A DNA stretch of 64,000 nucleotides, from contig JAWAWX010000001.1 of assembly GCA_038897215.1 (NCBI GenBank), forward strand, positions 192,001-256,000, in the 5' to 3' direction. Shown in pieces: positions 1-3,308 of this stretch (the first letter of the stretch is position 1; the number at the start of each line of letters is the position of its first letter). Made by a program: the position numbers and the translations under genes. Below the pieces are notes generated by a model, which saw only the letters and a program-made list of their open reading frames with translations, did not search any database and had not been told where the DNA came from. The stretch is from Acidilobaceae archaeon (GTDB taxonomy: Archaea > Thermoproteota > Thermoprotei_A > Sulfolobales > Acidilobaceae).

Positions 1-467
1 TGGCCCCCACTGAGCTCTCCAGGCCTCCTCCCCCTGACTCTCGAGAGGGAGAGCTTGTCTGTCGCGCTCTCCACGTCAGACATAGTTCTAGACTCGAAGC
101 TGAGCCAGAGAGACTCTATGGGGGCTCGCGAGAGGCTCTCGCCGGGGTTACCGGACCTCCCGATAGCTATGTTCTCGTCTACCAGGAGGTTCTGCATAAG
201 CCGAGGGATCTGGAAGCCTCTCACCAGCCCGAGCTTGTGTCTCTCGTGTAGAGGCATCCTAGTGATATCTGTCTTCTCGAAGACTACTCTGCCGGAGTCA
301 GGCTCTATGAGCCCACTGATTATATTCAAGAGAGTAGTCTTACCGCTACCATTAGGCCCTATGAGTAGAGTCATCTTGCCCCTAGGGACTCTAATAGACA
401 CTCCCTTGAGAGCCACGAGAGCTCCGAACTTCTTCCAGACGTTCTCCACCTCTAGTATAGCGTCCAC
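1..467 (-). CDS. Branched-chain amino acid ABC transporter ATP-binding protein (LivG-like), truncated by the window edge
   Basis: Not in the ORF track. Hand translation from GTG at 467: MDAILEVENVWKKFGALVALKGVS...LIGPNGSGKTT (Walker A)...RGFQIPRL...ELSGG (signature). Confidence 0.9.
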   Translation of the reverse strand, partial: MDAILEVENVWKKFGALVALKGVSIRVPRGKMTLLIGPNGSGKTTLLNIISGLIEPDSGRVVFEKTDITRMPLHERHKLGLVRGFQIPRLMQNLLVDENIAIGRSGNPGESLSRAPIESLWLSFESRTMSDVESATDKLSLSRVRGRRPGELSGG

Positions 468-605
468 TCCACGACCCCATCGAATTTACGGTATCTGCTC
501 TTTAGCACCACTATAAAGGGAGAAGCTATAAGTGTTAATGACCGGCTCGGAGATAAGGGGAAAAAGAGGCCATGGGGAGGAGAGGCTGAGAGAGGCTCCT
601 CTCCT

Positions 606-2039
606 TCATCTCCTTCTGAGCACTATGTATCCTGCGGCGGCGACCGCGACTATCGCTATCACGACTGCTGCTAGAAGAACCGGCGAGACTCCTGGAGCCG
701 CCACGTTAGCCTCTATAGTCTTGAACACTGTCTCCGCTAGAGCCGGGAATCCTGGGCTCTTCGGGTCGTAGGCGTACATCTCTAAGACCTTGACGCCCAG
801 CTCCTCAGCTCTTCTAGCTGTGTAGTCTGCCAGCATCCTCCCCCAGTAGTCGTTCCGGTAGACTATCACTACCTGCTTTACCTTATCGTCTGCAATCATT
901 CTAGCTATGGCTAAGCACTGGTAGTCGTCGGGCGGCGGGAACCTGTATATCGTGTCTTCGAACTTGAGCGCTGGTGAGGTGCTCGACGGGCTTATGACTA
1001 CGGACCTGCTTCCTCCAAGTATCAGGTCTCTCACTTTAGCTAGCTCGCTACTAGCCATCGGTCCAGCGAAGACCCTGATCCCTTTAGCGTAGAGAGCGCT
1101 ATAGGCGTCTTTAGCCTTCTCGGGGTCTGTTCCAGTGTCTCTCAGCTCGTAGGTGAACCTGAACTTGAACCCGTTCTGTGTGAGCCACGCGTTCAGGTCC
1201 TCTATAGCGATCTTGACGGCCTCCACGTTGGCTTTGCCGAAGGACGCTAGGCCTCCTGTCAGCGGGTAGAGGAGTCCGATAGTCACTGTTACAGTCGTGG
1301 GCGGCTCTTTCCTCACCAGTTGCCTCAGCTTCGCTGCATCCACGCTGGGCATAGGTCTACCAGCGGGCCTCGTGGCCAGCGGGTCTGCCTCGTACTTCTT
1401 TATCGTGTCTGTCTCCATGTCCCATAGAGCTTTCAGAGTCCAGTCGTACTTGCCGTCTTTCTTGGTTACCCCGAATATGCCGTAGTCTGTTCCAACCCTG
1501 TCCCCGTATCGGTCGAGGACGATCTTGCCCGAGGCTCCGTAGTAGATCTTGATGATCTCCGGTATAAGCGCGGCTATCGTGTCGACGTCGGCGTCAGTAG
1601 CTCCCCCCGCGGCCACCACCGCCAGGCCTAGGACCCATATCGCGTCGTAGCTGTTGAACGCGTAGCTGTCGGGAGCGTAGCCGACAGCGTCTCTCACGCT
1701 CCAGTAGATTCTCCTCACTAGCTCTATGTTCTCCAGGCTTAGAGATATAGTGGCTCTGAAGTTAGTCCTAACCGCTAGGTCTGCTGCTCTCTCGCTAGCC
1801 ACTAGTTTCTCGCTCAGAGCCAGGCCGTCTGTGCCGTACCATCTTATCTTGAACGCTATAGGGTACTTGATGGCTTCCGTCATGAAGTCCACTCCTTCCT
1901 CGAAGCTCACTAGAACTAGTCCTGTTTCTTCAGCTGTAGGCTTATCTTGCGCTATCGCTATAGTCGAGTAGGCGTACGCGAGAACTAAGGCTACGAGTAG
2001 TAGAGCTAGAGCCTTTCTCTTCATCGCTATTTCACCCAC
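606..2039 (-). CDS. ABC transporter substrate-binding protein (LivJ/type I PBP family), circularly permuted, with signal peptide and C-terminal membrane anchor
   Basis: IGLLYPLTG, DTGTDP, ISPSSTSP and YDAIWVL...GASG.I.LD..GDR motifs are present but the two halves are swapped. Lies next to the LivG-like gene. Confidence 0.85.
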   Translation of the reverse strand: MGEIAMKRKALALLLVALVLAYAYSTIAIAQDKPTAEETGLVLVSFEEGVDFMTEAIKYPIAFKIRWYGTDGLALSEKLVASERAADLAVRTNFRATISLSLENIELVRRIYWSVRDAVGYAPDSYAFNSYDAIWVLGLAVVAAGGATDADVDTIAALIPEIIKIYYGASGKIVLDRYGDRVGTDYGIFGVTKKDGKYDWTLKALWDMETDTIKKYEADPLATRPAGRPMPSVDAAKLRQLVRKEPPTTVTVTIGLLYPLTGGLASFGKANVEAVKIAIEDLNAWLTQNGFKFRFTYELRDTGTDPEKAKDAYSALYAKGIRVFAGPMASSELAKVRDLILGGSRSVVISPSSTSPALKFEDTIYRFPPPDDYQCLAIARMIADDKVKQVVIVYRNDYWGRMLADYTARRAEELGVKVLEMYAYDPKSPGFPALAETVFKTIEANVAAPGVSPVLLAAVVIAIVAVAAAGYIVLRRR

Positions 2040-2180: not shown

Positions 2181-3308
2181 CTACCCCAAGAGGCTAGACG
2201 CGAGAGAAGCGAGGGCTCTCGTGTTCAGCAAGCCGAGAGCTCCGCGACTCCTCAGAATCCTGGTAGCGACAGCTACTAGATTCTCGCCGTGTCTATCGTA
2301 GTCTAGTCTCATCAGCTCCCCTTCCAGAGCTCTCTCCAGAGCTCTCAAAGCCTCCTCGACGAGCACTGGGTTTTCGTGAGCGAGCCTAGCTATGGGCGCG
2401 AGTACTCTCATCTCTCTAGCTACGTGAGCAACCGAAGCTTCAACGGACTCCACGAGACTCCCCCCTCTTCTAATCAACCGCCCAGCGATCTCGGCTGCTA
2501 GAGCGTTCGGATAGAGCCCTCCGCCTGTTAGAGGCTTGTTTAGCGCGGCCGCGTCGCCCACGACTAGCACTCTTCCAGCTCTAATCCTGGAGGAGGGAGG
2601 TCCGAGGACTACTGTTCCACCATAGGTGGCTCTAGGCTCTCCTAGCGCGAGCTCTCTCTCGAGTCTATCGAGAAGCCTTGTGGCTACTCTCTTCTCGCGA
2701 GCTCCAAGCCCTAGAGTGGTCTCGCTCCCTCTCGGAATCCTCCAAGCGAAGAACCCGTGGGGGTACCGTTCTCCCAGATAGACTTCGATAGCTCTTCCTC
2801 TCGCGGGAACCAGGTAGTCTCTGTTGACTCCGTAGACTACTCTAGGCTCGTGCGTTAATCCCAGAGCTCTCCTGAGAGCCCCCATGTACCCCTCTGCTAG
2901 CAGGACTAGGTCGTAGCTCTCCCAGGAGCCTCTAGCTTTGACCGACCCGTCGGCAGACACTCTATCAACTCTTGAGTTCAGCTCGATTCTAGCGCCTAGC
3001 CTCTCGGCTTTCTCCAAGAGCTTCTCTTCTAGCGCTCGCCTATCGAGTCTCGCGACTCCCCCCTCAACTAGCACTGTCACGCTAGACGCTCTCCCCACTA
3101 GCCTCACGAGCTCGTACACGTTCTCCACGCTACTCAAGGCAGGGTCGCCGATTAGCCTCACAGTCCTCATAGAGACTAGCCCAGTGCAGTGTCTAGGAAC
3201 ACCCACAGCGCTGTGCTCCTCGTAGACCGTCACGCGAACCCCGGCTTCGGCTAGCTTTACGGCGAAGATGAGCCCAGCGAACCCTCCCCCCACGATAGCA
3301 ACCTTCAA
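2181..3308 (-). CDS. Geranylgeranyl reductase-family FAD-dependent oxidoreductase
   Basis: GGGFAG Rossmann motif, PRHCTG, FAWRIP, VGDAA...PLTGGG. Confidence 0.8.
   Translation of the reverse strand: MKVAIVGGGFAGLIFAVKLAEAGVRVTVYEEHSAVGVPRHCTGLVSMRTVRLIGDPALSSVENVYELVRLVGRASSVTVLVEGGVARLDRRALEEKLLEKAERLGARIELNSRVDRVSADGSVKARGSWESYDLVLLAEGYMGALRRALGLTHEPRVVYGVNRDYLVPARGRAIEVYLGERYPHGFFAWRIPRGSETTLGLGAREKRVATRLLDRLERELALGEPRATYGGTVVLGPPSSRIRAGRVLVVGDAAALNKPLTGGGLYPNALAAEIAGRLIRRGGSLVESVEASVAHVAREMRVLAPIARLAHENPVLVEEALRALERALEGELMRLDYDRHGENLVAVATRILRSRGALGLLNTRALASLASSLLG

Follow-up and report, generated by a model that had tools for sequence, protein, structure and literature searches.

Introduction

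Brautigam et al. (2016, PMC4990184) have described TpMglB-2 (Tp0684) of Treponema pallidum, a natural permutant among the type I / cluster B binding proteins, for which they proposed the class "Type Ic / Cluster Bc". TpMglB-2 is a relative of the glucose/galactose-binding protein MglB. The first three strands of its N-lobe (about 100 residues) are found at the C-terminus, and the order of the C-lobe is unchanged; the moved part shares 13% identity with the N-terminus of EcMglB. The protein is membrane-tethered and is still a ligand-binding clamp, with an extra fourth crossover (PMC4990184). We looked through the literature for natural permuted LivJ-type or solute-binding proteins and found only TpMglB-2 and engineered sensors. 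Here, we analyzed a gene for a LivJ-type substrate-binding protein with swapped halves, which is located in a stretch of 64,000 nucleotides (the window) from an Acidilobaceae archaeon (assembly GCA_038897215.1, contig JAWAWX010000001.1, positions 192,001 to 256,000). Our reading is that the gene encodes a functional, naturally permuted LivJ-type binding protein, and that the swap happened in place and recurrently within Acidilobaceae; we put the probability of this reading at roughly 85%.

Results and Discussion

Inverted Order of the Two Halves

The protein was compared with Pfam profiles and with PDB chains. The Peripla_BP_6 profile (PF13458) matched with its positions 1-183 on residues 251-435 (101.3 bits, cut-off 31.7), and the PF01094 match of the permuted protein scored 89.3 bits. 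When the N-terminal piece (residues 32-241) was used alone, positions 183-352 of the ANF_receptor profile were found on residues of about 42-193. The phmmer searches of PDB gave a similar picture, in which residues 251-437 were aligned with positions 10-195 of 4n0q (the Brucella leucine-binding protein) and residues 68-199 with positions 223-344 of 3ipc (Atu2422). The two halves together covered residues 3-195 and 223-344 of the PDB chains. Thus, both halves of the two-lobed domain are present, and their order is inverted because the Pfam and PDB half matches fall in reverse order; the canonical N-to-C order, with the IG..PLTG strand first, is not followed. The original prediction, made from the letters of the window, had proposed a split alignment to such profiles, and it returned two half matches in inverted order. 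All significant PDB sequence matches were to Leu/Ile/Val-type proteins or class C receptor domains, and kinship with MglB-type sugar-binding proteins was not found. Judged from these matches, the protein is a permuted derivative of the LivJ/LivK family (Peripla_BP_6, HAAT, type I / cluster B) and not a canonical member of it.

The segments are listed in Table 1. Block B, which comes first, holds the second part of the C-lobe, the second part of the N-lobe and the terminal beta-hairpin. Block A, which comes second, holds the first part of the N-lobe, from the TIGLLYPLTG strand, and then the first part of the C-lobe. Between them lies a 33-residue proline-rich linker that leads from the old C-terminus to the old N-terminus and has its homologue in the membrane-proximal stalk of normal-order proteins (DP(L/F)A.RP...P...). 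The cut falls after family position 190 or so, in a surface loop of the C-lobe that reads ...L..GV.PSKIGV in normal-order proteins, before the (L/I)xFEE strand (here LVLVSFEE). The C-terminal anchor is homologous to that of normal-order relatives (APGVSP, a transmembrane (TM) helix and RR). Translation from the probable start codon gives MKRKALALLL..., and the equivalent position is the start in homologues. The motifs listed in the original prediction, namely both halves, the proline-rich linker and the TM helix followed by RRR, were all found at the places given there.

Authenticity of the DNA

The genome derives from hot-spring metagenome data, so the swapped order could be an assembly artefact, that is, a mis-join or a collapsed tandem repeat. 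Two related contigs (L032, P0206) do resemble chimeras of normal-order and permuted alleles. However, positions 400-2300 of the window were found in one piece, with 0 differences, in Logan contigs built from runs of two hot-spring metagenome studies (contig depths of 90 and 8; one of the two runs may be the source of the genome itself). In addition, at least 14 permuted homologues were found in other assemblies. Full-length homologues that are colinear with the permuted order have 72% identity in G041, the other species of the genus, and in a Logan assembly, 45-49% in three species of another genus and more assemblies, and about 40% in a third group, so permuted homologues with 40-72% identity occur in many independent assemblies. 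The junctions from signal peptide to block B, from stalk to block A and from block A to the TM helix are all in frame, which the collapse of a tandem repeat could not produce, and the permuted frame is under selection by the ratio of nonsynonymous to synonymous substitution rates (dN/dS) given below. We consider an artefact exceedingly improbable. The proposal of a natural circular permutant, for which a mis-assembly at the junction had been named as one possible refutation, therefore gains from the inverted half-wise matches, from the colinear homologues elsewhere and from independent re-assemblies that are identical.

Probable Repeated Origins within Acidilobaceae

We explored this issue in 67 genomes from the window's GTDB family. 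The permuted order was found in the two species of the window's genus, in three of eight species of a second genus, g6, and in one genome of a third genus (G061), where the gene is divided between two contig ends; every other match has normal order. The same permutation, for which a search of related genomes had been suggested, was thus found in the same genus, in g6 and in a third genus. The neighborhood of an oxidoreductase dependent on flavin adenine dinucleotide (FAD), the binding protein, LivG and LivF is kept for the normal-order loci, for those cut in the same loop as the window's gene (type 1) and for those with a second cut site (type 2). Because all orders sit in the same syntenic operon, the rearrangements happened in place.

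For the trees, blocks A and B were excised and re-set in normal order, and maximum-likelihood trees were calculated. In the 58-row tree the type-1 state needed four changes, and a single origin was found in none of the bootstrap trees (0/200). One permuted clade was rejected by the approximately unbiased (AU) test on these 58 rows (log-likelihood difference of 225, p = 5 × 10−34), and trees of block A only or block B only gave the same polyphyly. When the proteins of a second search were added (46-row tree), five changes were needed, and well-supported branches forced at least four. The permuted protein P0007 is the sister of normal-order P0170 (91% identity, support 100/100), and their signal peptides are identical; permuted P0174, with a cluster of 43 sequences, is the sister of normal-order L033/L010 (92% identity, support 100/99). 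A clade of P0007 and P0174 was also rejected (AU test, p = 1.4 × 10−5). The breakpoints of these most recent type-1 events were read at the protein level only. Normal-order members of the ingroup keep the ancestral motif at the junction from block A to block B, which the permutants have lost from both ends, and the normal-order members are therefore unlikely to be revertants.

A single ancient permutation would explain the trees in another way: the nested normal-order proteins would have reverted, or conversion or recombination involving a normal-order copy would make them look closely related to permutants. The cut lies in one and the same loop of 6-8 residues in all type-1 permutants, as this explanation would expect, and tree parsimony cannot separate gains from losses. 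However, the ancestral junction (L..GV.PSKIGV) is found in the normal-order ingroup and not in the permutants, the junction residues differ between permuted groups, the polyphyly holds for each block alone, and monophyly is rejected by the AU tests. Furthermore, 0/67 family genomes have a normal-order and a permuted copy of the clade together. We regard a single origin as unlikely.

Several points nevertheless weigh against our overall reading and should be considered together with the one-sided superposition of the model and the lack of a tandem intermediate that are described in the following sections. One origin for the window's genus and the g6a group was not rejected (p = 0.19), so the window's own event is not counted as a separate one, and the count is four type-1 origins, perhaps five. 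The groups compared in the AU tests were named after the trees had been seen. P0007 and the type-2 permutant (L007 = P0168) each come from a single assembly. Finally, an undetected normal-order paralogue could, through gene conversion, give the false impression of independent origins. On balance, the sequences make it most likely that the permutation is polyphyletic in Acidilobaceae, with at least four separate type-1 origins and a fifth event at a different cut site. The window's lineage, a genus with two species, would be an old, fast-evolving example, and it may have a common origin with the permutants of one g6 subclade.

The two contig ends that carry the G061 gene are L009 (end of contig C49) and G061:C7:5-592, and they hold residues 7-208 and 193-443. 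This orthologue belongs to the P0009/P0028/P0203 group, where the permuted members have a long Gly/Thr-rich tether; the normal-order relatives P0010 and P0026 of this group have an N-terminal membrane anchor instead.

Half-genes were also observed in the same operon position. L032 (about 400-1250, plus strand, OGCA01000303.1) and P0200 consist of signal peptide, block A, Pro/Thr repeat and TM helix, and P0206 consists of signal peptide, block B, stalk, Pro/Thr repeat and TM helix. The junctions of L032 and P0206 combine normal-order junctions with permuted junctions of the P0174 type, and the junction of P0200 is its own. Compared with L033, L032 has 89% identity to the left of a 660-nt gap and 96% to the right. 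The three half-genes may be assembly chimeras, recombinants of co-occurring alleles or real deletion forms.

A Second Cut Site

The type-2 permutant L007 comes from a single metagenome-assembled genome (MAG) of genus g6, and its normal-order sister is L012 (Table 1). In L007 the order is signal peptide, then last strand, tail and stalk (about 45 residues, FEWRLIELYD...PPAKPP), then block A, the core of block B, Pro/Thr repeat and TM helix, so that block B ends directly at the Pro/Thr repeat. Comparison of the DNA of L007 and L012 showed a clean exchange of two adjacent blocks between colinear flanks, in which 408-544 of L007 corresponds to 1500-1636 of L012 and 558-1637 of L007 to 405-1484 of L012. 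Only 2-6 new residues were found at each junction of L007. Its model from AlphaFold2 (AF2) has a predicted local distance difference test score (pLDDT) of 90.9.

How the Swap May Arise

Tandem duplication followed by trimming had been suggested as the source of the permutant. Tandem LivJ-type proteins with the order A-B-A-B (about 800 to about 1900 residues) occur often across the wider family, and the window protein aligns colinearly across their internal junction from B to A; duplication and trimming is therefore feasible. However, no tandem A-B-A-B intermediate was found among the 67 Acidilobaceae genomes or the close homologue matches, so that this route is plausible in the wider family and lacks its intermediate in this clade. 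We also searched the normal-order and permuted genes for direct repeats and obtained only short two-copy matches of chance size, with no microhomology that would explain the breakpoints.

In the recent events the blocks were partitioned almost without loss or overlap, with one breakpoint at the start of the Pro/Thr repeat. This near loss-free exchange can be seen at the DNA level in the type-2 pair and at the protein level in P0174 compared with L010/L033. Such a partition would also fit a one-step exchange, and it hints at a single step, for which template switching or a circular intermediate would be examples, more than at gradual duplication and trimming.

The changes that follow the swap were counted as derived substitutions, polarised by the outgroup. 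The recent type-1 permutants had 15 and 10 such substitutions, compared with 2 and 2 in their normal-order sisters, and the type-2 pair had 16 compared with 12. The recent type-1 permutants thus carry 5-7 times more derived changes than their sisters; the numbers are small and their direction is consistent. This result suggests, from the sequences, a rapid adjustment after the swap. Taken together, at least four swaps in the same loop, a fifth cut, two very recent events, the hint of a one-step mechanism and the rapid adjustment lead us to lean slightly towards the view that this binding-protein gene is a hot spot for permutation.

Tandem architectures were frequent among the proteins collected. 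P0020-P0022, P0033 and many others have two to five tandem LivJ-type domains, and P0021 has three nearly identical copies. In P0211 a Ser/Thr kinase is fused to a LivJ-type domain.

Predicted Fold

The AF2 model of the window protein was calculated from an input alignment of permuted homologues and of separately referenced halves of normal-order relatives. Its mean pLDDT is 95.1 and its predicted template modelling score (pTM) is 0.89. The linker is ordered in the model (pLDDT of about 97) and forms a short helix at residues 235-241. With VIA-align, block A (model residues 250-445) was superposed on residues 23-217 of 4n0q with a Z-score of 13.5 and a root-mean-square deviation (rmsd) of 2.2 Å, and on the first 195 or so residues of LivJ-type structures with Z-scores of 12-13.5 and an rmsd of about 2.2 Å; Foldseek likewise aligned block A. 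The comparison with LivJ that had been proposed for the predicted structure thus holds for block A. Both aligners are sequential and reach one half only (about 185-215 residues), and the superposition therefore covers block A. A sugar-binding chain, 5er3, aligned over 258 residues, which probably reflects the resemblance between the two lobes. The order of the secondary-structure elements in the model implies four lobe-to-lobe crossings instead of the canonical three.

It could also be argued that the protein works as a domain-swapped oligomer, in which block B of one chain pairs with block A of another. The long proline-rich segment between the blocks would allow this arrangement, two chains in the same membrane would favor pairing, and A-only and B-only half-genes do occur in related assemblies. 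However, AF2 predicted a compact monomer with the pTM given above and a well-ordered linker, and the sequence and length of the linker are conserved within groups. We consider such an oligomer improbable and prefer a clamp formed within one chain.

Export and Membrane Anchor

The N-terminus, with KRK, a hydrophobic core of 15 residues and AIA|Q, resembles a Sec signal peptide that can be cleaved. Normal-order relatives with the same C-terminal anchor have an N-terminus of this type, and other relatives are anchored in the membrane at the N-terminus, through a Thr-rich linker, and lack the C-terminal helix. Because relatives carry either a C-terminal or an N-terminal anchor, one anchor seems to be the rule of the family. 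The mature protein is thus probably held by a single C-terminal helix, with RRR inside and the signal peptide presumably cleaved. The description of the protein as doubly membrane-associated in the original prediction is probably wrong, since the N-terminus reads as a cleavable signal peptide and relatives are single-anchored.

The permutation has a further consequence for the tether. Normal-order relatives have a tether of 45-70 residues, made of the stalk and a Pro/Thr repeat. In the window protein only about 7 residues separate the membrane helix from the final helix of block A. The earlier suggestion that the permutation changes the place of tethering agrees with this, because the anchor leaves the end of block A through the short spacer and not through the long Pro/Thr stalk.

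Based on these features, a working model can be proposed. The protein would be exported by the Sec pathway, and its signal peptide would be cut after AIA. It would then remain at the outside of the membrane, tethered by the C-terminal helix. The two-lobed clamp would fold and take an amino acid or a similar small solute between its lobes. In the model, the stalk segment joins the old termini, which would add the fourth lobe crossing and move the tether to the end of block A. The solute would be passed to the LivHM-type permease and the LivG/LivF ATPases encoded downstream.

Operon, Selection and Likely Function

The genome of the window (G000) is a single contig of 1.16 Mb, and the permuted gene is its sole Peripla_BP_6 (PF13458) locus. 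The gene heads an operon of substrate-binding protein, LivG-like ATPase, LivF-like ATPase (both ABC_tran) and two BPD_transp_2 permeases, in which the LivG-like ATPase has a branched-chain C-terminal tail (BCA_ABC_TP_C). We calculated dN/dS between the permuted orthologues of G000 and G041 and obtained 0.05, with dS saturated; within the other permuted genus the values were 0.09-0.13. The PLTG, GPMxS, SPSSTSP, WYGTDG, YDA and GDR motifs can be aligned with those of canonical relatives and of solved LivJ-type chains. Two metatranscriptome runs gave 0 reads on the gene, but about 3% of each run was read, which is too little to test expression.

In a small genome of 1.16 Mb, a rearranged gene on a long branch (stem of 0.7-0.95 substitutions per site) might be a decaying or non-functional relic without a working product. 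However, a relic would hardly keep an intact frame, a dN/dS of 0.05 and the conserved family motifs. It is also the sole LivJ-type binding protein for an intact four-gene transporter, the permuted form is retained by the two species of the genus and by further genera, and the monomer fold is confidently predicted. A relic is very improbable, and the permuted binding protein is probably functional. Motif conservation and purifying selection are the signs that it may capture an amino acid or a related ligand for the transporter.

Outside the window, the genome has another BPD_transp_2 permease pair (G000:C1:862325-863972), which lacks a Peripla_BP_6 partner. These permeases presumably serve a transporter with another type of binding protein.

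The coordinates of all features are collected in Table 1.

Table 1. Features of the permuted gene, its neighbors and its relatives. Coordinates without a prefix are positions in the window.
Feature	Coordinates	Strand	Remarks
Whole open reading frame, permuted LivJ-type substrate-binding protein, 477 residues	606..2039	-	GTG at 2039, probable start ATG at 2024, stop codon 606-608
Predicted Sec signal peptide, residues 6-30, MKRKALALLLVALVLAYAYSTIAIA	1950..2024	-	Predicted cleavage after AIA; sequence reading
Block B, residues 40-216, C-terminal half of normal LivJ-type proteins	1392..1922	-	ANF_receptor 183-352; 3ipc 223-344; aligns with B halves of relatives
Proline-rich linker, residues 217-249, EADPLATRPAGRPMPSVDAAKLRQLVRKEPPTT	1293..1391	-	Aligns with stalk of normal-order L008/P0023 and L010-L012
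Block A, residues 250-445, N-terminal half of the family	705..1292	-	Peripla_BP_6 1-183; 4n0q 10-195; VIA-align
Spacer residues 446-452, TM helix 453-474 (nt 618-683), cytoplasmic RRR (609-617)	609..704	-	Sequence; helix 453-476 in the model
LivG-like ATP-binding cassette (ABC) ATPase gene start	3..467	-	Directly downstream; LivF-like and two BPD_transp_2 genes beyond window edge
FAD-dependent oxidoreductase gene	2181..3308	-	Upstream; conserved neighbor of normal-order, type-1 and type-2 orthologues
Type-2 permutant, G034 (genus g6)	L007:1411-2874	+	Single MAG
Normal-order sister of L007, G037	L012:733-2187	-	Support 100/98
Normal-order L010	L010:697-2181	-	
Normal-order L033 open reading frame	from nt ~1580	+	

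Significance

That proteins can evolve by circular permutation is textbook knowledge. To our knowledge, natural cases are usually old, single events of which the steps have been lost. Two-lobed ligand clamps are widely used as biosensor scaffolds, and here a clamp that is cut inside one lobe still appears to work, as far as sequence conservation and the model indicate. The same operon is found in close relatives with normal-order, type-1 and type-2 forms, and some of the pairs are about 91-92% identical. Such close pairs would permit direct before-and-after comparisons of how the protein folds, how its hinge moves, how tightly it binds its ligand and how it docks to the transporter, and they also allow a test of whether selection acts on the position or the length of the tether. 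The result matters for genome annotation as well, where profile searches report only half a domain for such permuted proteins.

Comparison with Known Systems

The canonical LivJ/LivK proteins (E. coli LivJ 1Z15, Brucella 4N0Q, Agrobacterium Atu2422 3IPC and Aeropyrum pernix 3EAF) belong to the same family as the window protein, with the same motifs and predicted secondary-structure elements, and they have the same operon partners (LivG, LivF and two BPD_transp_2 permeases). However, family positions of about 190-345 come first and positions 1-190 second in the window protein, with a stalk-derived linker between them, and its model has four lobe crossings compared with three in the canonical proteins.

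The normal-order Acidilobaceae orthologues (P0008, P0023, P0170 and L010-L012) have the order signal peptide, block A, block B, stalk, Pro/Thr repeat and TM helix. In syntenic locus, signal-peptide type, C-terminal anchor and stalk sequence they agree with the window protein, with 45-55% identity per block, and they differ from it in the order of the blocks and in having 45-70 residues of stalk and repeat where the window protein has about 7. The tandem multi-domain LivJ-type proteins (P0021, P0033) are more distant (about 30-33% identity) and come from other lineages.

With TpMglB-2 the window protein shares the circular permutation of a type I binding protein, the membrane tether and the fourth crossing, which is model-based here. 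The two differ in family and in the site of the cut, since the window protein is of LivJ type and is cut in the C-lobe after about 190 residues, whereas TpMglB-2 is cut in the N-lobe. Moreover, both halves of the permutants described here are clearly homologous to those of normal-order sisters (up to 91-92% identity), and the event recurs. TpMglB-2 is thus the closest published precedent, from a different subfamily and with a different cut, and the polyphyly within Acidilobaceae is new here.

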